Below are positions 1,572 to 31,588 of a DNA stretch of 44,698 bases, piece after piece. A program made the translations under genes and the position numbers. Below the pieces are notes generated by a model that had not been told where the DNA came from, did no database searches, and saw nothing but the letters and a program-made list of their open reading frames with translations. Source of the DNA: Shigella phage 1b; the sequence record OR420686, one strand, 5' to 3'. Within the stretch, counting starts at the first letter, position 1; each line of letters begins with the position of its first letter.

Positions 1572-3836
1572 ATGAGCTTAATTAAATTCGCTGTAACACG
1601 ACCCGCTAAAAAAGGCGAAAAAGCCAGGGCGGAAAACTTCCAGATGACCACCGAAGAGTTTTTCGAATTTATCAATGACGCGAAAGAAATCTCATCGGTG
1701 CACATCAACAAGACCGAGGATAAAGCCGAGTATGCGCGCCGCAAGCGTAAGGCCGATGGCATCGTAGCGTATACCAGTGACGGCTTACGCCGCAAGACCA
1801 GTGCGGTGGACCGCTCGATCCTGTTCTTCGATATTGACCGTACCGACACCCGCACCCTACGCCGCTGCCGTAAGGCTTTCATCGACGCGGGTCTGGAACA
1901 CGTATTTCACACCACAACCGGCGACCGCCACCCACTGAAAGGCGGCACGCGTTGCGCTCGCTTCCTGGTACTCACTGACAAGCCTGTACCGGCTGAAGAC
2001 CTGGGCCGTGTCCAGTATGCGCTATTACACCAACTTGGGCTGTCAGATGTGGACTTCGACGATTGCACGAAAGACACAAACCGCCTGATGTACCTGCCAC
2101 ACCAGCAGTCTGTAATAAAGTGTCACTACGGCAAACGTGCCCGCGTCCGTCGTCTGCTTCGCCTGGCGGATAAGTTGGGCGTGGAGAAAGAGGAAGTACG
2201 CCGCGAGCTTACCCAGGGCGACGACGCAGTGGCGGACGGGATTCTGGACTGGTGCTTCCAGGCAGGATTCGAGGAGTTATCTTCCGGTCGCGGTTATGAA
2301 GTGCCGTGCCCTAACGAACACCTGCACAGCGGCGAAGGGTCCACCGCCATAATGGTCAAGGATGGTGAGATCCGTTTCAAGTGTATGCACTCCGGCAACG
2401 AGTGTTGCTCGGAGCTGAACAGACACCAGCACCTGGCGCTGCGTCTTATCGGGATTCCGGACCACCTGAACGTCGAGCCACACAATATGTCCCGTAAGCA
2501 AATCGCCGCCATCCTTCCGGGACTGGACGACGAGGAAGTGGAGTCGTGCTATGAACATATTGTTGATGCGGTTGGCGACGGCGAAGAATACGGCGTGTGC
2601 ACCGATGCGGATCTGGATAACGAGCCGGTTGCGCTGTTCAGTAAGCACGACCCGATTATCGAGGGGTTGATTAACTTCAAATCGACCTGGTATATGGCGG
2701 GTGAGTCGAATATCGGTAAGTCTTTCTACGTGCTGGGTCAAATGGGCGCGGTCGCCGCGGGTATTCCGTTCGGCGGCGCGAAGGTCGTCCAGTCTCATTG
2801 CTTCTATTTCGACGCGGAAGGTGGTGAAGCCTCCAACCAGCGCAAAGAAGCATTGCAGATTAAATATGAGCACGACCTCGACAAGCTGCACATTATCGAT
2901 CTGCAATCTCGCGGCTGGGATATCACCAGCAAATCTGGCTTGCGCGAAGTTATCAGCTTTATCAACCGCACGGCTAACGGCGAGCCGGTTGGCCTGGTGG
3001 CGTTCGACTCACTCAACCAGACTGTCGCGCTGCGCTCCGCCGAGGCTAAACCGTTCGACGAGAACAACGCCAGCGATATGGGTGAAGTGGTCAAAGCGCT
3101 GAAGGCCATCGCGGAGAACACAGGCGGCAGTGCGGGCGTCATCCACCACCCGGCGAAAGGTGCAAACGGCAGCAGAACCCCACGCGGGTCCGGCGCGCTG
3201 CATGGTGCTGTCGATTCCGCTTTCTTCCTGGAACAGCCGGACGACAACCAGCCGGGTCAATTGAACCTGTATCACGAAAAGTCACGTAACGGCATCAAGC
3301 AAGCGCCGCGTGGCTTCGTCCTGCTCAAGTGCAAGGTTAAGGTGGATCTCCGCAAGTCAGAGGCGTTCGAGGCGCACCAGTCCACCAGCACCGGGCCAGA
3401 CTTCGGCGACGTGGTTGCCGGTTGGGACGTCAAGCCAATTGCCGCCACACCACGCGACGAGACTCTGTACCTCGTACCGGTCGCCCTGGCGCCGTTCGCC
3501 ATCGAACAGGCGAAGGCAGCAGGCAAGGCCGCGGTTAAGGAAGAGAACACCGCCGGACCGCGCAACGAAAAAGAGAAAGTGCTTTATGCGGCACTGGAAA
3601 AACTGATGGAAGATAACCCGGACCATACTGGATTCAGTAAATCGGCAATTGTCCGCCAGGCTGGGCTGGCAAAAGGTGGCACGTCGACGAAGGCAATCGA
3701 CGATATGGTCGAGCGCGGAGTGATAGGTTTTTACACCGATCCGCACACCGGGGCCATCTATGGGTCGTCTAATTTGGTCATCAAATCGGATATCCCCATC
3801 ACGCTTTCAGCGACCGATGACGATTTAAAAGATTAA
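1572..3836 (+). CDS. primase-polymerase (AEP-like) fused to a RecA-like helicase/ATPase (754 aa)
   Basis: N-terminal ILFFDIDRTD (hhhDhD-type) and FHTTTGDRH motifs; Cys/His zinc-binding cluster CPNEHLHSGEG...CMHSGNECC; Walker A GESNIGKS and Walker B-like LVAFDSLNQ. Confidence 0.75.
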   Translation: MSLIKFAVTRPAKKGEKARAENFQMTTEEFFEFINDAKEISSVHINKTEDKAEYARRKRKADGIVAYTSDGLRRKTSAVDRSILFFDIDRTDTRTLRRCRKAFIDAGLEHVFHTTTGDRHPLKGGTRCARFLVLTDKPVPAEDLGRVQYALLHQLGLSDVDFDDCTKDTNRLMYLPHQQSVIKCHYGKRARVRRLLRLADKLGVEKEEVRRELTQGDDAVADGILDWCFQAGFEELSSGRGYEVPCPNEHLHSGEGSTAIMVKDGEIRFKCMHSGNECCSELNRHQHLALRLIGIPDHLNVEPHNMSRKQIAAILPGLDDEEVESCYEHIVDAVGDGEEYGVCTDADLDNEPVALFSKHDPIIEGLINFKSTWYMAGESNIGKSFYVLGQMGAVAAGIPFGGAKVVQSHCFYFDAEGGEASNQRKEALQIKYEHDLDKLHIIDLQSRGWDITSKSGLREVISFINRTANGEPVGLVAFDSLNQTVALRSAEAKPFDENNASDMGEVVKALKAIAENTGGSAGVIHHPAKGANGSRTPRGSGALHGAVDSAFFLEQPDDNQPGQLNLYHEKSRNGIKQAPRGFVLLKCKVKVDLRKSEAFEAHQSTSTGPDFGDVVAGWDVKPIAATPRDETLYLVPVALAPFAIEQAKAAGKAAVKEENTAGPRNEKEKVLYAALEKLMEDNPDHTGFSKSAIVRQAGLAKGGTSTKAIDDMVERGVIGFYTDPHTGAIYGSSNLVIKSDIPITLSATDDDLKD

Positions 3837-6255: not shown

Positions 6256-6278
6256 TTATGCAAGCGTGATATAGTCCC

Positions 6279-6306
6279 AGTGAGCTAAAACTTACTGGGA
6301 CTTTTT
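6279..6306 (+). terminator. rho-independent terminator
   Basis: agtcccagt / actgggact stem followed by TTTTTT. Confidence 0.5.
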
Positions 6307-6307
6307 T

Positions 6308-6598
6308 ATGGATAAGCTAAACGAGTGGTTATTCGCCCTTGCGTGCCTTGCTGGTGGCTTCGTAGGCGCACGCATTCATGGCGAGGCAACGAAAGGGCCG
6401 CTAAACTTCGTTTTATACATCGTGGTTGGCTTCCTGTGTGCCATATTTGGTGCGCCAGCTATCGCCGAGTGGGCGGGCTTATCGGGCGAGCGCACTGTCG
6501 CCGGTTTGGGCTTCGTAACTGCTATCTTCTGGATGCCAATAGCCGCCCGGATCAGGGAGACTATTGAGTCGTTCCGACTTCCGGGGGGCGCAAAATGA
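6308..6598 (+). CDS. putative holin (96 aa, multiple transmembrane segments)
   Basis: Hydrophobic helices, charged C-terminus, directly upstream of the endolysin gene. Confidence 0.5.
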   Translation: MDKLNEWLFALACLAGGFVGARIHGEATKGPLNFVLYIVVGFLCAIFGAPAIAEWAGLSGERTVAGLGFVTAIFWMPIAARIRETIESFRLPGGAK

Positions 6599-6840
6599 TT
6601 ATCACCGTCCTGTTGTTTGTTATCATAGGGGCTTCGTCCCTGTTTAACGTGTATGCGCCGTCCGTCCAGGATGGCATTTTAGGCCGGGTGTTATATCTGC
6701 TAACGGCGATGATCTGCGTTGTCGGATTGTTGCAAACAGGAGACGTATCTGACACCACCTGGACCGCGTTAATCTGGCTGTTTGCATTGCGCACGCTGCG
6801 TAATGCTGTTTTGAATGGGGTAAAACATGCGATTCAGTGA
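6595..6840 (+). CDS. membrane protein (81 aa), holin or antiholin-like
   Basis: Three hydrophobic segments; overlaps both the putative holin and the endolysin gene. Confidence 0.45.
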   Translation: MIITVLLFVIIGASSLFNVYAPSVQDGILGRVLYLLTAMICVVGLLQTGDVSDTTWTALIWLFALRTLRNAVLNGVKHAIQ

Positions 6841-7318
6841 CAACGGTCTACGATTTACGGCAGCATGGGAGCAATTCAGCCCAGTGCCGTATTTCGCGAC
6901 TAAGAAAGAGCAGGCCCGCGGCCTGTACACCTGGGGTTATGGTCACACCGGCACTAATCCGCCGCGGAGCATTACCCGAGCGGAAGCGCTGGAGCTACTT
7001 AAGCGAGATGTGGCATATGCCGAAAACTGGGTAAACAAGTACGCACACCCGAGCATCAATCAGGCGCAATTCGACGCGCTGGTGGACCTGGTCATCAATG
7101 CTGGCCCGGGTCCGATCATGCCGGACAACATTGCCAACGACTTTGACGATGCGGTGCGACTGGGTGACTGGGCGAAGGTCCGTGCTACTCTGCCGCAGTT
7201 CCGCAAGCAAGGCGGGGAAGTGCTGAAGGGTCTTGTACGCCGTGCAATCGGCAGACAGGCGTTGTTTGACGGTAAGCAGTGGGACGTTGCCGAGCGAATC
7301 GGGCGTAACGCGGCATAA
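6827..7318 (+). CDS. endolysin, T4/P22-type lysozyme (glycoside hydrolase family 24-like)
   Basis: WEQF...GLYTWGYGHTG and NQAQFDALVDLVINAG match phage lysozyme motifs (compare P22 gp19 IGVGHTG, NQNQYDAL). Confidence 0.8.
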   Translation: MRFSDNGLRFTAAWEQFSPVPYFATKKEQARGLYTWGYGHTGTNPPRSITRAEALELLKRDVAYAENWVNKYAHPSINQAQFDALVDLVINAGPGPIMPDNIANDFDDAVRLGDWAKVRATLPQFRKQGGEVLKGLVRRAIGRQALFDGKQWDVAERIGRNAA

Positions 7319-7334
7319 TACGAGGTAACACAGT

Positions 7335-7502
7335 ATGTTAAAAAGCATTCTTGATCATAACGCTGACGCGCTCGCCGCGCTGGCTAAAACCGAAGACCCT
7401 GGCGCACGCGCTATCATCGCGGACACTATCAGCCATGCAGGCGTCTTTGACGCGAAGCTGCCGAGTCCGCCACCGCCGGAAGAACCCGGCCCCGCAGCGT
7501 AA
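7335..7502 (+). CDS. small hypothetical protein (55 aa, Pro-rich C-terminus); below the track length cutoff
   Basis: ATG with GAGG RBS directly after the endolysin gene; a terminator follows. Confidence 0.3.
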   Translation: MLKSILDHNADALAALAKTEDPGARAIIADTISHAGVFDAKLPSPPPPEEPGPAA

Positions 7503-7509
7503 ACAATCA

Positions 7510-7534
7510 AGCCCGGAATTATCCGGGCTTTTTA
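7510..7534 (+). terminator. rho-independent terminator
   Basis: gcccggaattatccgggc hairpin followed by TTTTT. Confidence 0.6.
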
Positions 7535-7538
7535 TTGC

Positions 7539-7568
7539 TTGACTTGCAACCAACACAGGGGCCATACT
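7539..7568 (+). promoter_or_regulatory. sigma70-like promoter (TTGACT, 17-18 nt spacer, CATACT) flanked by two TGCAACCAA motifs
   Basis: Read directly; about 30 nt upstream of a GAGGAG RBS. Confidence 0.4.
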
Positions 7569-7597
7569 GCAACCAATCAACGAGAGGAGTAAACAAG

Positions 7598-7687
7598 ATG
7601 GCACGTAAAGATGTTTGGGTATTGGCAATCTGGACCACCGCGGCTTTTATCGGCATGGTTATTTGTGAGGTGATGTATGGCTTTTAA
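7598..7687 (+). CDS. small hydrophobic peptide (29 aa); below the track cutoff
   Basis: ATG with GAGGAG RBS at ideal spacing; encodes MARKDVWVLAIWTTAAFIGMVICEVMYGF. Confidence 0.35.
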   Translation: MARKDVWVLAIWTTAAFIGMVICEVMYGF

Positions 7688-7850
7688 ACCGCAGCGTGAT
7701 TCCCGCCCTATGGCGGACAGACCGAAGGATATCCAGATGGAGGCGTCATTCATCCAGGGGCTATCATTCCTCACTAAAAAAGAGCAGGGGAAAGTAATGG
7801 GTGAGTTCCGCCGCGTATTGGCGGAATTCAAGCAGCAAGACGCAGAATAG
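7677..7850 (+). CDS. small hypothetical protein (57 aa); below the track cutoff
   Basis: Start overlaps the preceding peptide gene; GAGGTGA RBS. Confidence 0.3.
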   Translation: MAFKPQRDSRPMADRPKDIQMEASFIQGLSFLTKKEQGKVMGEFRRVLAEFKQQDAE

Positions 7851-7914
7851 TGCCTCGCCGCCATACGGACCGTGATATATTGTCCACGGTCCACTAATCA
7901 GGAATTAATTAAAT

Positions 7915-9057
7915 ATGCACCCGCAAACTAAAATTACCGATGAGCAATTGATCGCCGAGTTGCAATCCGGCACTACCTCGAAAGATATTGCGAAGAAATA
8001 CGGGATTGCCCTACGCAATGTTTATATGCGGAAAGCCCGCCTATCGAAAAAAGGCATTGGACACGGCAACGATGCCGTAATCCGCAAGCGCGTTGCCGAT
8101 GGCTTTGGGGTTAAGCGCGTATCGGCCCTGGTGCGCGGCAATGGCGAAGAGGTCATGTCGTGGGTCATCACGGAGCAGGACAAAGAGCGCCAACTCGAAG
8201 CCATGCGCGCTGTTGTCGAGGGTATGAACAGCGAAATCACACCGGCAGCGCCAGTAAAAGCCCCGCCAGTACCGATCCAGGCGCTCGACTTGCTCAACCT
8301 GTACACCGTATCCGACTTCCACCTGGGCATGTTGGCATGGGGCGAGGAGACTGGCGAAGACTGGGATATGGCGATCGCCGAAGACCTGTTTTACCGCTGG
8401 TTTGTTGAAGCCTTCGCCCGCGCACCGGACGCAGGCACTGCCGTAATTAATATCCTCGGTGATATGGCCCACTTTGATAGCCTCGATGCTGTCACTCCGG
8501 CAAGTGGTCACATACTGGACGCTGACACCCGCTACCAGAAACTGGTCCGATACATGATTCGCATGGTGCGCAACGTCGTCGAACTGGCGCTGCAAAAACA
8601 CCACAAAGTCAAACTGCTAATCGTCCAGGGGAATCATGACGAGTCTGGCATGATTTGGCTGGCTGAAATGTTCAATACGCTGTACGAGAACGAGCCGCGC
8701 GTTGATGTGGACACGTCCCCGGACGTATACAAAATGGTGCAACACGGCAAGACCACGCTATTCTTCCACCACGGGCACAAAGCGCGCTTCGATGCTATCG
8801 AAACCGTCATGATTTCTAAATTCAGACAGGCTTTCGGATCCAGCGAGTACAGCTACGCGCATGTAGGCCACTTGCACCACCAGAAGATTGTAGAATCCCG
8901 CAACATGATTGTTGAACAGCACCGGACCCTCGCCGCGAAAGACGCATATGCCAGCCGCGGCGGTTGGATGTCCGGTCGTAGTGCCAACGTCATCACCTAC
9001 AGCGCCAATTACGGCGAAGTGGCGCGCTTAACCATTAGCCCGGAAATGTTGAAATGA
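7915..9057 (+). CDS. calcineurin-like metallophosphoesterase with N-terminal HTH domain (380 aa)
   Basis: Metallophosphatase motifs DFHLG, GDMAHFD, GNHD, HHGH, GHLHH in canonical order; N-terminal HTH-like TSKDIAKKYGIALRNVYMRKARL. Confidence 0.75.
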   Translation: MHPQTKITDEQLIAELQSGTTSKDIAKKYGIALRNVYMRKARLSKKGIGHGNDAVIRKRVADGFGVKRVSALVRGNGEEVMSWVITEQDKERQLEAMRAVVEGMNSEITPAAPVKAPPVPIQALDLLNLYTVSDFHLGMLAWGEETGEDWDMAIAEDLFYRWFVEAFARAPDAGTAVINILGDMAHFDSLDAVTPASGHILDADTRYQKLVRYMIRMVRNVVELALQKHHKVKLLIVQGNHDESGMIWLAEMFNTLYENEPRVDVDTSPDVYKMVQHGKTTLFFHHGHKARFDAIETVMISKFRQAFGSSEYSYAHVGHLHHQKIVESRNMIVEQHRTLAAKDAYASRGGWMSGRSANVITYSANYGEVARLTISPEMLK

Positions 9058-9272: not shown

Positions 9273-9300
9273 CAGCCCGCCGATTTGGTGGGCTTTTTTG
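9273..9300 (+). terminator. rho-independent terminator
   Basis: cagcccgcc / ggtgggc hairpin followed by TTTTTT. Confidence 0.5.
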
Positions 9301-9361: not shown

Positions 9362-9934
9362 ATGCACAAAAGGGCTTATATCATGGCAGAAATCAAAGTT
9401 AAGGGCCGACGCGCCAAACTGGACGGACGAGTAGCGGTGACTCCGCGCCGTAAACCAGGCGAGCAAACCGAACATACCAATCTCGGACCTGAGATCGAGT
9501 ACGGCAAGCGCCGTAAAGGCGGTAAATGTGGACGCCCGACCGACTACCGCACTGTGTATTGTGACCAGCTTCGTCGCTATTTCGCCGATGCCGTAGCCTG
9601 GCAGATCAACTACTCTGACAAGGGGGCCGCGCAGGTAATACCCCGCAACAAAATGCCAACCTTCGGTCGATTTGCCGCGGAAATCGGTGTGGGCGTAGCT
9701 TGCCTGTATCGCTGGGCGCGCGCACATGAGGAGTTCGCCGAGGCGATGGCGGACGCAATGGAGTTGCAGAAAACTTTCCTGATGGAAGCTGGCGGAGTGA
9801 CCATCGCTGCGGGCTTCGCGACCTTCCTGCTTAAAGCCAACCACGGCGTACGCGACGATACCCCACTGGATGACGACGAAGATGATAACGGCGACGTCGT
9901 TGTCGAACCTACCGGCAAAGGCCAGGGCGAATAA
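9362..9934 (+). CDS. terminase small subunit
   Basis: Immediately upstream of the large terminase; HTH-like PTFGRFAAEIGVGVACLYRWA; acidic C-terminus; start ambiguous between 9362 and the ATG at 9383. Confidence 0.6.
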   Translation: MHKRAYIMAEIKVKGRRAKLDGRVAVTPRRKPGEQTEHTNLGPEIEYGKRRKGGKCGRPTDYRTVYCDQLRRYFADAVAWQINYSDKGAAQVIPRNKMPTFGRFAAEIGVGVACLYRWARAHEEFAEAMADAMELQKTFLMEAGGVTIAAGFATFLLKANHGVRDDTPLDDDEDDNGDVVVEPTGKGQGE

Positions 9935-11319
9935 TGCGTAATTATGCGGCAGAACACCGCGCACTGGAGCGCACGATCGCAAAGCGCAACCGACCACCAC
10001 GCCCGACACGCGTTGCGCAGGCCGTCCGCCTGTACCAGCCTGATTGCCTTCCGCACCAGGTCGAACTACTGCGGGACACTAAGACTAAAATCCTCGGCCT
10101 GTGCTCCGGCTTCGGGGGAGGAAAGTCGTGGGTCGCTGCGCGTAAGGTAATCCAGCTTCTGACACTTAACCCCGGTCATGATGGCATCGTTACAGAACCG
10201 ACTATTCCTCTCCTGGTCAAGATCATGTACCCGGAATTGGAAAAGGCTTTCGACGAGGCTGGCTTCCGGTGGAAGTTCAATAAGCAGGACAAGATCTACA
10301 ACGTGCTGGTGAAAGGGAAATGGACCCGCGTTATCTGTGAATCAATGGAGAACTATACCCGCCTGATCGGGGTCAACGCCGCGTGGATTGTTGCCGATGA
10401 GTTCGACACCACGAAACAAGACGTCGCGCTGGCGGCATATCACAAATTGCTCGGTCGTCTGCGTGCGGGCTTCGTCCGCCAGTTCGTCATCGTGTCCACC
10501 CCGGAAGGCTACCGGGCGATGTACCAGATTTTCGAAGTGGAGAAGGATAGCCAGAAACGCTTGATCCGGGCGAAGACCACGGACAACCACCATTTACCGG
10601 CAGACTTTATTGACACGCTGCGCAGTCAGTACCCGGCTAACCTGATTGATGCGTACCTGAACGGCCTGTTTGTTAACCTTACGTCGGGCGCGGTGTACAA
10701 GATGTTTAACCGTGAGGAGAACGCCAGCACCGAAGAAGTGCAGCCGGAAGACACGCTGATTATCGGCATGGACTTTAACGTCACGAAGATGGCGGCGGTC
10801 GTGTACGTCAGACGGCAGCGCGTCACGGAGAACAAGGAGTTCCGCGACGAGATTCACGCCGTGGATGAATTTGTGGACCTGTTTGACACCCCAGCTATGA
10901 TTGAGGCGATCGAGGAGCGCTACCCCGATCATTGTGCTGCCGGTCGTGTTGTCGTTTACCCGGATAGCAGCGGCAAATCCCGCAAGACGGTCAACGCGTC
11001 GTCGTCCGATATCGCACAACTGGAAGATGCGGGCTTCGAGGTGGAGTATGACAGTGTTAACCCGCCTGTGAAAGACCGATTGATCGCGATGAATACGATG
11101 ATGTGTAACTCGAAGGGCGTGCGCCAGTATTTTGTCAACCTGGATAAATGCCCTACACTAGCGAAATGTCTGGAACAGCAGGTGTACGACCTGAAGAAAG
11201 GCGAACCGGATAAAACTGCCGGTGTGGACCACATGAACGATGCCGCGGGCTACCCAATTGCGCACCTGTTCCCTGTGATTCGTCCAATCGCCGTTGTTCC
11301 TACCGTAGATTTCTACTAA
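9934..11319 (+). CDS. terminase large subunit (ATPase plus nuclease)
   Basis: Walker A GLCSGFGGGKS, Walker B WIVADEFD, C-terminal nuclease-like region (IIGMDFN ... YPDSSG). Confidence 0.85.
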   Translation: MRNYAAEHRALERTIAKRNRPPRPTRVAQAVRLYQPDCLPHQVELLRDTKTKILGLCSGFGGGKSWVAARKVIQLLTLNPGHDGIVTEPTIPLLVKIMYPELEKAFDEAGFRWKFNKQDKIYNVLVKGKWTRVICESMENYTRLIGVNAAWIVADEFDTTKQDVALAAYHKLLGRLRAGFVRQFVIVSTPEGYRAMYQIFEVEKDSQKRLIRAKTTDNHHLPADFIDTLRSQYPANLIDAYLNGLFVNLTSGAVYKMFNREENASTEEVQPEDTLIIGMDFNVTKMAAVVYVRRQRVTENKEFRDEIHAVDEFVDLFDTPAMIEAIEERYPDHCAAGRVVVYPDSSGKSRKTVNASSSDIAQLEDAGFEVEYDSVNPPVKDRLIAMNTMMCNSKGVRQYFVNLDKCPTLAKCLEQQVYDLKKGEPDKTAGVDHMNDAAGYPIAHLFPVIRPIAVVPTVDFY

Positions 11320-11330
11320 GGAAACCGACC

Positions 11331-12851
11331 ATGACCGTTAACGTTGACAACCAGCACCCACTTTATGCGCGCATCGCGCCAGAGTGGAAAATGATCCGTG
11401 ACTGCGTAGCGGGGGAGCGCGCCGTTAAGGCGTGCGGCCCCTTGTACCTGCCACACCCCGCAAGCGGCGACACCACCGACCCGAAATCACGGGCACGGTA
11501 TAATGCGTATAAGCAACGTGCGGTATTCCTGAACGCCACCGCCCGCACACTGAATGCACTGTTAGGCGTTGCCTTCGCCAAACCGGTGAGTATGGACCTT
11601 TCCGGGGCGATGGCTGACCTGATTGATGACGTTGACGGCAGCGGTATGCCGCTGGCGCAACTCCTGCGCGGTGCTATGTCTGAAGTTCTGCAATCAGGCC
11701 GTGCCGGTTTTATGGTCGACTACGACCGCCAGGCGCATTTTGACGAACTGGGTAACGTAGTACCGCAGACCGCCGCTGAAATGACAGCACACCGCCCGCT
11801 CATCCGCCTGTATACGGCTGAACAGATCATTAACTGGCGGCAGACCCACGGGGTCGACACGCTAATCGTGCTGAAGGAGACGGACGAAATCAGCACCGAA
11901 GACCCGGACGACTTCGCAAACCACGAAGTAACTATCTGGACTGAGCTTCGCATGATTTCAGGAAAGGCCCACGCCCGCCGCTGGTTTTACAACGCGGACA
12001 CGTCCGAGGTGCAAATGGACTTGCCGCGTGGATTCACCCGCACCGATCTTGTACCGCTGGTGGATGCCTCCGGTAATGCGCTAACTCAACTGCCATTTTG
12101 CTGGTGTGGCGCGGTGGACAACAACGCGACACCGGACGCCGCACCACTGGCGGATATCGCGTCCATCAACATTAAGCACTACAACGCCGAAGCCGACGTC
12201 GCCGAGATTGCGCACATCGTGGGGCAACCTACCCTCATTGCGACCGGTCTGACTCAATCATGGGCGGACAAGAACCTGAAAGGCGGCATCGCGCTCGGGG
12301 CAACTAAGGGCGTTATCCTGGGCCAGAACATGGACGCCAAACTGCTTCAGGCGGAGGAGCGCAACTTGTCTGTTGCACTGTGTGAGCGCCGCGAATTGCA
12401 AATGGCTAAACTGGGCGCGGCCCTGGTCGAGAAGGGGACCGCACCTAAGACGGCAACCGAGGCGGCCTACGATGCGCAGACAGATAACAGTATCCTGTCA
12501 CTGATTGCCGGTAACGTTGAGAAGGCTTTCAACCGTGCGCTGCAAATCGTCAAGCTGTTCACTGGCGACACCGCAGATCAACGCGTAACGCTGAATAAGT
12601 TCTACACCGAAATCACGGTTGACGCACAGCTTATGACCGCAATGATGTCGGGGGTGCAGACCGGTACTATCCGTCTGGCTGACTTTATCAAGTGGATGAT
12701 GGCCCAGGGCGTTATTGACGACTCGCAAACCGTCGAGCAGGTGGAAGACGAACTGCGAAATCAGAATCCATTGCCTCAAATGTCCCCTGATGCGGTAGAA
12801 TCTACCGAAGAAGACCCGGACAAGGTAGCGGACAATGGCGAAGACAATTAA
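11331..12851 (+). CDS. portal protein
   Basis: 506 aa ORF directly after the large terminase; AAGGAA RBS; acidic C-terminus; assigned by position and size. Confidence 0.6.
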   Translation: MTVNVDNQHPLYARIAPEWKMIRDCVAGERAVKACGPLYLPHPASGDTTDPKSRARYNAYKQRAVFLNATARTLNALLGVAFAKPVSMDLSGAMADLIDDVDGSGMPLAQLLRGAMSEVLQSGRAGFMVDYDRQAHFDELGNVVPQTAAEMTAHRPLIRLYTAEQIINWRQTHGVDTLIVLKETDEISTEDPDDFANHEVTIWTELRMISGKAHARRWFYNADTSEVQMDLPRGFTRTDLVPLVDASGNALTQLPFCWCGAVDNNATPDAAPLADIASINIKHYNAEADVAEIAHIVGQPTLIATGLTQSWADKNLKGGIALGATKGVILGQNMDAKLLQAEERNLSVALCERRELQMAKLGAALVEKGTAPKTATEAAYDAQTDNSILSLIAGNVEKAFNRALQIVKLFTGDTADQRVTLNKFYTEITVDAQLMTAMMSGVQTGTIRLADFIKWMMAQGVIDDSQTVEQVEDELRNQNPLPQMSPDAVESTEEDPDKVADNGEDN

Positions 12852-13938
12852 TCAATATATGGCGGATCGAATGATCCGCCGACACATCTTCACCCAGCGC
12901 CTGAGCAATGACCAGGCGCGAAGGGTGCTTGCTATGTGGGAGAAGTTCCGGCCCACGTTACTGGGTAAGCTGACCGAGTTACTTGATGGCAAAAAGTCCA
13001 TGAACAACAAGGCACTTACCACTTTGTTAACGCAACTCGACAAGACCGTTAAAGCAGAATTGCGCACCGAGTTTAAGTCGTTGGCGGAAAGCCTTCAGGA
13101 GTTTGCCGACACCGAGGCCGATTATCTCGCCGACACATTGACGGCAGCGATCCAGCCGGTGGTCGCCGTACCTGCGGTCGAGGTGGTTGGCGTAGTGACC
13201 GGTGCGCAGATCGCAGCTACGGCAATGAAAAACCCGTTCCAGGGTAATACGATGATGCAATGGCCTGACTCACTTTCTGAGTGGACCAGGACGCAGATCG
13301 GCAATCAGGTGCGCGCCGGATTCATCCAGGGCAAGCCGACTATGGAAATTATTGCGGACGTGAGGCGCGCGCTAGGCGGTCGTAGTGCGCAAGCTATCTC
13401 GAGCGTTGTTAAATCCGCAGTAAACCACTATGCGGCGACGGCCCGCGAACTAATGGTAAAAGCAAATGACGATATTCTCGAAGGTCGCCAATGGTTATCT
13501 ACATTGGACACGCATACTTCTCCCATGTGCCAGCTACGCGATCGCCTGTTTTATCCGGTTGATGTTACTCCCGATACGAAAGGGAAGCGAGGTGGGAAAG
13601 TGGTGGCGGGGTCACAATATGGCGCTGGTCCGGGCAAGCTACATTATTGCTGCCGTTCGACGGAGACGTGGAAAGTCAAAGGCATGGAAGATTGGCCCAG
13701 TGGTAAGCGTCCGGCACTGAAGGCCGACGCAGGCAGATTGCTGAGTGAGCAAGTCGACGCGCAGACTGATTTCTTCTCATGGGTGCAGCGCCAGCCGCGC
13801 CATATCCTGGAGGAATTATATGGAGTGCAACGCGCCGACCAGATTATGCGCGGCGTGAAAGTGCCGAAGATGTTTACCGATTCTGGCGAACTGATGACTA
13901 TCGCACAGCTTAAAAACCGGGGGTTATGGCGTGATTAA
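12835..13938 (+). CDS. head morphogenesis protein (minor head protein, Mu F-like)
   Basis: 367 aa ORF after the portal gene; assigned by position. Confidence 0.45.
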   Translation: MAKTINQYMADRMIRRHIFTQRLSNDQARRVLAMWEKFRPTLLGKLTELLDGKKSMNNKALTTLLTQLDKTVKAELRTEFKSLAESLQEFADTEADYLADTLTAAIQPVVAVPAVEVVGVVTGAQIAATAMKNPFQGNTMMQWPDSLSEWTRTQIGNQVRAGFIQGKPTMEIIADVRRALGGRSAQAISSVVKSAVNHYAATARELMVKANDDILEGRQWLSTLDTHTSPMCQLRDRLFYPVDVTPDTKGKRGGKVVAGSQYGAGPGKLHYCCRSTETWKVKGMEDWPSGKRPALKADAGRLLSEQVDAQTDFFSWVQRQPRHILEELYGVQRADQIMRGVKVPKMFTDSGELMTIAQLKNRGLWRD

Positions 13939-14239
13939 ATATGCAGCGATCGGACTGGTTATCGGTCTGGTGGTAGGATTCTGGCAGGGCGATTCCTATC
14001 GCGCTGGCGTAGTGGCGAGAGCGGCGCAAGAAGCGCAAGCGAAAGCCCAACGGCAGCAAACTAAGGTCGTCGAGGGGTCTGTGCAGGCCGAACAGGCCCG
14101 CGACGTGGAATATCGGACTATCACGAAAGAGGTTGTGAAATATGTTACGCGTCCTAACCGTACTGATTGCCGTTTTGATGATGAGCGCGTGCGGATCAAG
14201 CAACGTGCCATCGACGCCGCTAACAGAGTCGGTCTATAG
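13931..14239 (+). CDS. i-spanin (Rz-like), putative
   Basis: GTG start; N-terminal transmembrane helix (IKYAAIGLVIGLVVGFW) then Ala/Gln-rich helical periplasmic domain; partner lipoprotein gene overlaps out of frame. Confidence 0.55.
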   Translation: MIKYAAIGLVIGLVVGFWQGDSYRAGVVARAAQEAQAKAQRQQTKVVEGSVQAEQARDVEYRTITKEVVKYVTRPNRTDCRFDDERVRIKQRAIDAANRVGL

Positions 14240-14372
14240 ACCGCCTTGCACCTTTGAGAATGCCTCGGCAGATCCAGACGAAGACTTGCTGGTTGATGTT
14301 AAGAATATGGAGTGTGGTGCTAAGCTGAGGGCGCAGGTCCTGGAGTTGCAGCAAATAATTAAGGGGCCGTAA
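14142..14372 (+). CDS. o-spanin (Rz1-like outer-membrane lipoprotein), putative
   Basis: Signal peptide with lipobox LMMSAC-G; Pro-rich mature region; starts inside the i-spanin gene in another frame (overlapped architecture). Confidence 0.55.
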   Translation: MLRVLTVLIAVLMMSACGSSNVPSTPLTESVYRPPCTFENASADPDEDLLVDVKNMECGAKLRAQVLELQQIIKGP

Positions 14373-14384
14373 TGGCCCCTTTTT
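14364..14384. terminator. GC-rich hairpin between convergent genes, with T-run on the plus strand
   Basis: ggggccgtaatggcccc followed by ttttt; lies between the o-spanin stop and the stop of the minus-strand gene 14387..15151. Confidence 0.6.
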
Positions 14385-14386
14385 CG

Positions 14387-15151
14387 TTAGCGCGGAATAC
14401 CGCAAATCTCGTTGAGAGTTTTCACATCCAGCGCCACCGCCGTGGACTTCGGCTTGTCCGGGTAAGGGATGAATTGCTCAACTTCAGGCCATGCATTAAT
14501 CAGCTTCGTATCGGTATTGTGCATATCCAGCACGCCGGTAACAGTTAGTTTGAACGCGTCATACTTAGCCCGCAACTCACGGCGGGCCTTGTCGTTACGG
14601 TCCAGGCGCTTGCAGAAATCATGGTCCGCCGGGTAGTCTACGCGACCGCGCGGAAGATATATCGGCAGCGATTTTCCGTCCTCGTCCACTTCGCACACTG
14701 AAGCCAGCATAACTTCCTCGTACCCCGGTACGATATCGCCGAGATCGGGAGATAGCTTATTCATGTATTTATATTCCCAGTATCCGCGATGTACGCGGTA
14801 TTGGCGACCGTCACCGCTCATGGACAAGGTGCGCACATTTCCGCCTGCGTTGATTTCGAAAGTGGCGTCATAAACGCTGCCGATACCGTTCGGGCTGTCG
14901 GCGTCATAACGATACGTCGCCTTGTTGGTGTAGACGCAGACGCAGTACATTGGCGACTTGGCACCTTCTAGTGCTTCAATATATGCGCGTAACTCGGCGA
15001 ACGTGCGAATGCCTTCCGGCATACAGTCCAGCGTAATGGCATAAGCCAGGTCGCGCGAGTCCACCATGATTTGTTTGGCTTCGGTTGCGATTTCATGGTC
15101 GCGCAGGATGTTAGCCAGGATCTGATTTTTAATGACTTTCGTCAGTCTCAT
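14387..15151 (-). CDS. hypothetical protein (254 aa), opposite strand to the surrounding morphogenesis genes
   Basis: Long ORF with GAGGA RBS; no recognisable motif. Confidence 0.6.
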   Translation of the reverse strand: MRLTKVIKNQILANILRDHEIATEAKQIMVDSRDLAYAITLDCMPEGIRTFAELRAYIEALEGAKSPMYCVCVYTNKATYRYDADSPNGIGSVYDATFEINAGGNVRTLSMSGDGRQYRVHRGYWEYKYMNKLSPDLGDIVPGYEEVMLASVCEVDEDGKSLPIYLPRGRVDYPADHDFCKRLDRNDKARRELRAKYDAFKLTVTGVLDMHNTDTKLINAWPEVEQFIPYPDKPKSTAVALDVKTLNEICGIPR

Positions 15152-15190
15152 TTTTATGTCCTCATTTTAGGGGCTTCCGCCCCGTTTGGT

Positions 15191-15505
15191 TTAGTTGAAT
15201 TTGATGTTGCCGCCGGTGGAAGTTAAGCGAGCACATACAGCTTCAACGGCATCGACGCACATGAAATCGTTAAAGGCTTCGACCAGGGCGTTAATGAAAG
15301 ATGCCGGAACCAGGCCGCAAGCCGGATTATCGAATGTCGCGGAGTTGATCGCCGCTTTTGCCGCTTCGGAAGCATTCATGCTCTGGCACAGATTCAGCGC
15401 TTCCGCGTTACGCATTGCGTGAAAGGTAAAGGTATTCGCTACGGTAGCTTTATTGAAACGGGCCATTGCGGCGTCTACTGGAGTTGCTACGGTCATGTTA
15501 GTCAT
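15191..15505 (-). CDS. hypothetical Ala-rich protein (104 aa), first gene of the divergent two-gene unit
   Basis: Track ORF trimmed to the ATG at 15505, which has an AAGGAA RBS; promoter-like block upstream. Confidence 0.55.
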   Translation of the reverse strand: MTNMTVATPVDAAMARFNKATVANTFTFHAMRNAEALNLCQSMNASEAAKAAINSATFDNPACGLVPASFINALVEAFNDFMCVDAVEAVCARLTSTGGNIKFN

Positions 15506-15540
15506 CTTGTTTTCCTTCATATCTCTGTTGGTGTGCAACC

Positions 15541-15570
15541 AATATAGCGCAACCAACTCCCGCAGTGCAA
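15541..15570 (-). promoter_or_regulatory. sigma70-like promoter (TTGCAC-N18-TATATT) for the minus-strand two-gene unit
   Basis: Read on the reverse complement; shares the block TATATTGGTTGCACACCAAC with the promoter at 4314-4342. Confidence 0.45.
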
Positions 15571-17577: not shown

Positions 17578-17603
17578 TGGGCGGGCTTATGCCCGCCTTT
17601 TTT
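17578..17603 (+). terminator. rho-independent terminator
   Basis: ggcgggcttatgcccgcc followed by TTTTTT. Confidence 0.65.
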
Positions 17604-31369: not shown

Positions 31370-31588
31370 TTACTTGCAGGTGGTGCTTTTGAAGTGGTCT
31401 ACCGACACATACTGGAAGTTGAACGGATACCCAGCCCGTAACATTTTATGACCGCTAACGTCTGCAACCCCAAACACCGGGACTGAATACTCCATGCCAC
31501 TATTCATGTATGTCGCGTCGCAGATTTTAGACGGCATGTTGGCACAACCTGACAAAAGAACCGCACAAATCATAATTAAAGTTTTCAT
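31370..31588 (-). CDS. small lipoprotein (72 aa), candidate superinfection-exclusion factor
   Basis: Track ORF trimmed to MKTLIMICAVLLSGC (signal peptide plus lipobox LLSGC); AGGAGAT RBS; opposite strand to the flanking tail genes. Confidence 0.55.
   Translation of the reverse strand: MKTLIMICAVLLSGCANMPSKICDATYMNSGMEYSVPVFGVADVSGHKMLRAGYPFNFQYVSVDHFKSTTCK

Follow-up and report, generated by a model that had tools for sequence, protein, structure and literature searches.

The locus at 13931 to 14372 raises the question of whether two overlapping genes that follow a head morphogenesis gene encode the spanins of this phage and, if so, why they lie so far from the holin and endolysin genes. The window (the whole 44,698-nt stretch that was analyzed) is the DNA of a Dhillonvirus-type Escherichia coli siphophage, 90 to 94% identical to many deposited genomes. 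The pair very probably represents an overlapped two-component spanin of the "Jersey" family, which is common to Dhillonvirus and Guernseyvirinae siphophages; the proposed spanin function rests on homology and gene anatomy. The pair is real but ordinary and catalogued, and a large set of phages of E. coli and Salmonella carries it at this location.

The lysis genes of the window fall into two loci (Table 1). The sequence-only reading had placed holin-like genes and an endolysin at 6308 to 7318, and these identities are borne out by matches to PHROG families and PF00959. No hydrophobic N-terminal segment was seen by eye in the endolysin, so the enzyme is probably soluble and holin dependent. The spanins are the last cistrons of the terminase-portal-head morphogenesis block, which lies downstream of the holin/endolysin cassette, and 6.6 kb separates the endolysin stop from the i-spanin start. 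The pair is thus unlinked from the cassette, as first proposed, and stands between the head morphogenesis gene and a divergent insert of two minus-strand genes (14387 to 15556), after which come the scaffold and major capsid genes.

Several features flank these loci. Directly 3′ of the endolysin gene, within the hairpin-bounded lysis cassette, lies the phrog_11068 ORF, the product of which has a Pro-rich C terminus and, by eye, neither a hydrophobic segment nor a lipobox; an accessory role in lysis is possible. Gluttony lacks some 320 bp that follow the cassette terminator here (7535 to 7900). A promoter-like site (7539 to 7568) and a 57-aa ORF (7677 to 7850) lie in this segment, together with an ORF for a 29-aa membrane peptide with a strong ribosome-binding site (7598 to 7687), and no PHROG match was obtained for either ORF. 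In phage EP23, the second slot of the divergent insert holds a RusA-like resolvase, indicating that 14387 to 15556 is a variable cargo site. In phages Ent2, Schulenburg, and Smarc3, the spanins run directly into the scaffold gene, and in Shemara and AH01, one small minus-strand gene lies between them.

Table 1. Features of the window that bear on the lysis genes, with positions counted from its first nucleotide
Feature	Position	Strand	Details
Helicase-primase	1572-3836	+	followed by small ORFs
Terminator-like hairpin	6273-6302	+	12-bp stem, T-run; ends 5 nt before the holin ATG at 6308
Holin 1	6308-6598	+	96 aa; phrog_2359 at 9.6e-32; annotated holin in Gluttony (gp29)
Holin 2	6595-6840	+	81 aa; phrog_2508 at 8.4e-27; annotated holin in Gluttony (gp30)
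Endolysin	6827-7318	+	163 aa, phage-lysozyme fold; PF00959 at 8.7e-21; phrog_7 at 3.4e-36
Conserved ORF	7335-7502	+	55 aa; phrog_11068, 6.7e-39, unknown function
Terminator-like hairpin	7509-7530	+	
DNA repair exonuclease	7915-9057	+	
Terminator-like hairpin	9274-9294	+	
TerS	9362-9934	+	
TerL	9934-11319	+	
Portal	11331-12851	+	
Head morphogenesis	12835-13938	+	367 aa
Spanin pair	13931-14372	+	
i-spanin gene	13931-14239	+	GTG start; 102 aa; from ORF list and sequence
o-spanin gene	14142-14372	+	ATG start, GAGG before ATG; 76-aa precursor; from ORF list and sequence
Bidirectional terminator-like hairpin	14361-14381	.	9-bp stem, then T-run; between the convergent o-spanin and Nmad5 genes
Nmad5 nucleotide-modification-associated protein	14387-15151	-	PF18757, 1.7e-54
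phrog_24635 protein	15191-15556	-	121 aa
Terminator-like hairpin	17579-17598	+	
Cor-type superinfection exclusion lipoprotein	31370-31588	-	72 aa; MKTLIMICAVLLSG followed by C; phrog_1119, 1e-28

Anatomy and coding of the pair

The two genes were compared with the spanin class criteria of Summer 2007 and Kongari 2018. An overlapped pair at exactly these coordinates was the core of the sequence-only reading, and it is upheld by PHROG searches, in which both products match spanin families. The i-spanin gene, the GTG start of which overlaps the stop of the upstream head morphogenesis gene, encodes a protein that matches phrog_2536 ("Rz-like spanin") at 4.9e-36. Its N terminus, IKYAAIGLVIGLVVGFWQG, reaches a maximum mean Kyte-Doolittle value of 2.37 (15-residue window at residue 1), and residues 1 to 20 are hydrophobic; of the other 82 residues, 35% are charged and one is a cysteine (C80). 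One N-terminal transmembrane domain followed by a periplasmic, largely helical C-terminal domain is predicted, and the single-sequence AF2 model (low confidence, pLDDT of 61) has a helix at residues 3 to 72, a break at 73 to 81, and a second helix at 82 to 99. In the homologue alignment, the motif EVVKYV..P.R..C.F..ERV..K..A...AN is conserved across genera, and the cysteine is present in 9 of 10 homologues.

The o-spanin gene lies on the same strand in the +1 frame with respect to the i-spanin gene, and 98 nt are common to both. Its product matches phrog_5672 at 2.6e-25 and phrog_1267 at 8e-12. The precursor begins with MLRVLTVLIAVLMMSA followed by CGSS; that is, a short SPII-type signal peptide with the lipobox MSAC is followed by Cys17, with Gly at +2. 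Since residue +2 is Gly and not Asp, the 76-aa product would be sorted to the outer membrane. The mature protein is 60 aa long and has further cysteines, residues 36 and 58 of the precursor, and the pair therefore has at least one cysteine in its predicted periplasmic parts (C80 in the i-spanin, C36 and C58 in the o-spanin). The –3 Met of MSAC lies outside the strict [LVI][ASTVI][GAS]C lipobox consensus, whereas relatives have Leu at this position (LSAC, LSGC); catalogued o-spanins include nonconsensus lipoboxes, and complementation was obtained with one of these, AWAC, in a u-spanin test (PMC6139136). The body of the o-spanin had been described as Pro rich, which overstates its composition: 6 of the 60 residues of the mature part (10%) are proline, and the C terminus is predicted to be helical at low confidence; in the single-sequence AlphaFold model (pLDDT of 52), the signal helix is followed by an unstructured region and then by a C-terminal helix (residues 55 to 73). 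Both models, read for secondary structure only because their confidence is insufficient for fold searches, are compatible with a spanin pair. A unimolecular spanin of the T1 gp11 type was set aside, as no C-terminal hydrophobic segment is visible by eye in the 76-aa product and the other lipoprotein of the window is Cor only.

Conservation was followed in 11 homologues from Dhillonvirus, Jerseyvirus, Kagunavirus, and Cornellvirus and from Serratia, Pantoea, and Klebsiella phages; the lipobox cysteine and both periplasmic cysteines of the o-spanin are invariant in all of them. Variable sites were counted by codon position among five Dhillonvirus copies in the singly coding parts of the two genes. 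The counts at positions 1, 2, and 3 are 8, 6, and 27 in the i-only part (27/41 third) and 7, 5, and 24 in the o-only part (24/36 third), and neither frame dominates in the overlap region. Both spanin frames carry this apparent signature of purifying selection.

The coding pattern bears on a different reading of the locus, according to which the 76-aa ORF is untranslated or does not encode a lipoprotein and the 102-aa product is a membrane-anchored factor for head assembly or another accessory task, without a role in lysis. The position of the pair among head genes would suit such a factor, as would the public records, several of which give a truncated product of 48 to 52 aa or no o-spanin at all, and no functional test of any member of the "Jersey" family was found in the literature. 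However, the full-length ORF is retained with its signal peptide and lipobox cysteine intact in 11 of 11 homologues, although the overlap varies from 8 to 155 nt, and substitutions in the o-only part fall mainly on the third codon position of that frame, as counted above. A GAGG ribosome-binding site precedes the o-spanin ATG, no other spanin candidate occurs in the window, and phages of Gram-negative hosts in which no spanin was found make up only a limited set (Kongari et al., PMC6139136). We consider a lysis-unrelated accessory factor highly improbable and regard the genes as a spanin pair.

Uniqueness, spread, and inherited position

A scan for lipoprotein signals over the whole window returned 13 ORF starts, compared with 2.45 in shuffled sequences, and a Shine-Dalgarno-like motif lies upstream of only two of them, the o-spanin and Cor. 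The Cor gene, antisense among the tail genes, encodes the sole other credible lipoprotein of the window. Neither the scan nor the ORFs beside the endolysin gene yielded a second spanin candidate anywhere in the window, so the claim that this is the only convincing spanin pair, with no different pair near the endolysin, stands. The plus-strand ORFs 7335 to 7502, 7535 to 7687, and 7677 to 7850 were rejected as spanins adjoining the endolysin, showing by eye no lipobox and no pairing of a type II membrane protein with a lipoprotein. The minus-strand ORF 7338 to 7628 (96 aa, with a lipobox-like LIGC) appears spurious: it has a TTG start, runs antisense to the phrog_11068 gene, and spans the hairpin at 7509 to 7530, and its N terminus falls in DNA that is not conserved in Gluttony. 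No match in Pfam (E ≤ 0.01) or NCBIfam was obtained for either spanin or for the holins; both proteins thus fall outside PF03245 and PF06085, which we take to be the lambda Rz and Rz1 families, respectively.

Both subunits are homologous to listed members of the "Jersey" family and of PHROG 2536 with 5672/1267. By tblastn, the o-spanin is 81.6% identical to that of EP23 and 43% identical to that of Ent2, the i-spanin is 90% identical to that of JL1, and the pair is found in 641 to 676 phage records, mostly of Salmonella and Escherichia siphophages. Public annotation and the published spanin catalogue already contain both the assignment as spanins and the split layout. KarlBarth gp05 and gp06, at equivalent coordinates and in the same position, are annotated as i-spanin and o-spanin, and the same genes in the same position are annotated as "Rz-like spanin" in Gluttony and EP23. 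Kongari et al. (2018) list HK578, EP23, JL1, SSL-2009a, and SO-1 in the overlapped "Jersey" family and place Jersey, SETP3, the Ent phages, and K1G in the same family for both subunits; the entry is bioinformatic (PMC6139136). For the spanins of the BASEL paper, annotation was done with the SpaninDataBase (PMC8594841). In Dhillonvirus vB_EcoS_P78, the two holins, the endolysin, and the Rz-like spanin are genes 31, 32, 33, and 40, with the same spacing (PMC12677095), and in Jerseyvirus SeF1, holin PHROGs 2359 and 2508 co-occur with spanin PHROGs 2536 and 5672 (PMC9409062).

The position of the pair is shared as widely as its sequence. In Jerseyvirus Ent2, it lies between the head morphogenesis/decoration genes and the scaffold gene, and the holin-holin-endolysin block is found about 1.5 kb upstream of TerS. 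In Kagunavirus Schulenburg and Serratia phage Smarc3, the pair is located between the head morphogenesis and scaffold/capsid genes, and in Cornellvirus Shemara and Pantoea phage AH01, it is found no more than about 500 bp upstream of the scaffold gene. The unlinked position is therefore inherited, being part of the head-gene module in every related phage group examined. Such remoteness from the holin/endolysin cassette is an established feature of these phages, and the significance of the locus beyond correct annotation is small. Lysis engineering in Dhillonvirus or Jerseyvirus has to allow for a cassette whose parts are spread over about 7 kb.

Annotation of the o-spanin varies among public records. 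Truncated entries of 48 to 52 aa, without signal peptide or lipobox, are found in Gluttony (L002:9714-9872), EP23 (L005:1573-1731), Ent2 (L003:6332-6478), and Schulenburg (L004:6882-7028), and the o-spanin is unannotated in the slur06 record; full-length lipobox ORFs are present in all five genomes. The 47-position phrog_5672 profile appears to reflect such truncated entries. The coordinates given here cover the full o-spanin gene, of which several related public records carry the truncated version.

Hairpins and transcription

Four of the terminator-like hairpins (6273 to 6302, 7509 to 7530, 9274 to 9294, and 14361 to 14381) are conserved in Gluttony. The last of these has a folding energy of –18.6 kcal/mol (z = –2.65); the final codons of the o-spanin gene (K-G-P) make up one stem arm, and the stop codon falls within the loop. 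Gluttony retains this hairpin (L002:9862-9880), with sequence differences in each arm. The stop codon within the loop indicates that this hairpin marks the end of the TerS-to-spanin block. Taken together, the positions and the conservation of the hairpins argue that the spanins end a TerS-to-spanin module, of which the holin/endolysin cassette is independent; location in separate modules is plausible, and the hairpins say nothing about timing.

Timing is where the sequence-only reading had gone further, suggesting that the lysis genes are divided between early and late transcription units. The holins and endolysin would then be expressed early or in the middle period with the helicase-primase and the exonuclease, between which the cassette indeed lies, and the spanins late with the head genes, so that spanin supply would be regulated separately from the lysis trigger. 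The boundaries formed by the four conserved hairpins fit such a division, and T4 offers a precedent for spanin genes located away from the holin and endolysin genes. However, the holin, endolysin, terminase, portal, head morphogenesis, and spanin genes are all on the plus strand, with no opposite-strand gene between them, and no convincing promoter intervenes, promoter-like sites being at chance level (15 found versus 13.9 expected).

The hairpin ahead of the first holin, which is identical in Gluttony (L002:2293-2322), also speaks against early expression. Because it ends only 5 nt before the holin ATG, transcription has to read through it to reach the holin. In lambda, tR′ ahead of S is a late-operon arrangement, and the layout at 6273 to 6302, which recalls it, could mark the start of antitermination-controlled late transcription. 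In Ent2, the homologous holin-holin-endolysin block, upstream of TerS, shares its strand with the structural genes and is opposite to almost all replication genes, which counts against an "early" lysis cassette. Expression data for early or late lysis genes were not found in the literature for Dhillonvirus or Guernseyvirinae, and the paper on the temporal transcriptome of the related Kagunavirus K1B4 makes no mention of holin, endolysin, or spanin. On balance, a temporal split of the lysis genes seems unlikely. That the pair closes the packaging/head morphogenesis block in all related groups examined might also reflect a regulatory design, which we consider slightly less likely still. In that case, spanin synthesis would follow structural-gene transcription, and the holin/endolysin cassette would be gated on its own by the upstream hairpin at 6273 to 6302, so that the timing or dose of each half of the lysis machinery would be set independently.

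Proposed mechanism and comparison with known systems

The preferred reading, an overlapped spanin pair of the "Jersey" family, suggests a mechanism by analogy with Rz/Rz1 of lambda and PseT.3/PseT.2 of T4, from which we infer membrane topology, lipidation, complex formation, and the role in lysis. The 102-aa protein would be held in the inner membrane by its N-terminal helix, its largely helical domain reaching into the periplasm, and the 76-aa product would lose its signal peptide, receive its lipid at Cys17, and travel to the outer membrane. Binding between the two subunits in the periplasm may then create a bridge that passes through the peptidoglycan meshwork and is probably stabilized by disulfides among the three periplasmic cysteines. 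Release of the soluble endolysin by the two holins, of which holin 1 is the putative functional partner of the spanins, would lead to degradation of the wall, whereupon the freed complexes would disrupt the outer membrane and complete lysis.

The closest counterparts are the other members of the "Jersey" family, in which both subunits are homologous to those described here. Amino acid identity to the Dhillonvirus copies is 78 to 97%, and that of the o-spanin to the Jerseyvirus, Kagunavirus, and Cornellvirus copies is 34 to 43%. The +1-frame overlapped layout, the conserved cysteines, and the motifs are shared, as is the position in the head module; where annotation covers both neighbors, the pair stands between the genes for head morphogenesis and scaffold. 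There are, however, differences in detail: the overlap is 98 nt here compared with 119 to 155 nt in EP23, Ent2, and Schulenburg and 8 nt in Shemara and AH01; the lipobox –3 residue is Met rather than Leu; and the i-spanin, lacking a C-terminal tail, is shorter (102 aa compared with about 119 to 128 aa).

The lambda Rz/Rz1 pair shares with the present one a type II inner-membrane protein and an outer-membrane lipoprotein encoded in the +1 frame, periplasmic cysteines for disulfides, and a helical periplasmic domain of the i-spanin with a break. In lambda, the o-spanin gene is fully embedded, whereas the genes studied here overlap and have neither a holin nor an endolysin gene as a neighbor. Mature lambda Rz1 contains about 25% proline and has no predicted helix, unlike the o-spanin of this phage, with its 10% proline and predicted C-terminal helix. 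Since neither protein matches the Pfam or NCBIfam models, the relation to Rz/Rz1 is architectural, with no detectable homology.

PseT.3/PseT.2 of T4 resemble the pair in an o-spanin with two periplasmic cysteines and a helical element, and the T4 spanin genes likewise lie apart from those for the holin (t) and endolysin (e) (PMC6139136). On the other hand, the two T4 genes do not overlap but are separated, and they fall into another catalogued spanin family (PMC6139136), and the T4 i-spanin has no cysteine, whereas the i-spanin of this phage has one.
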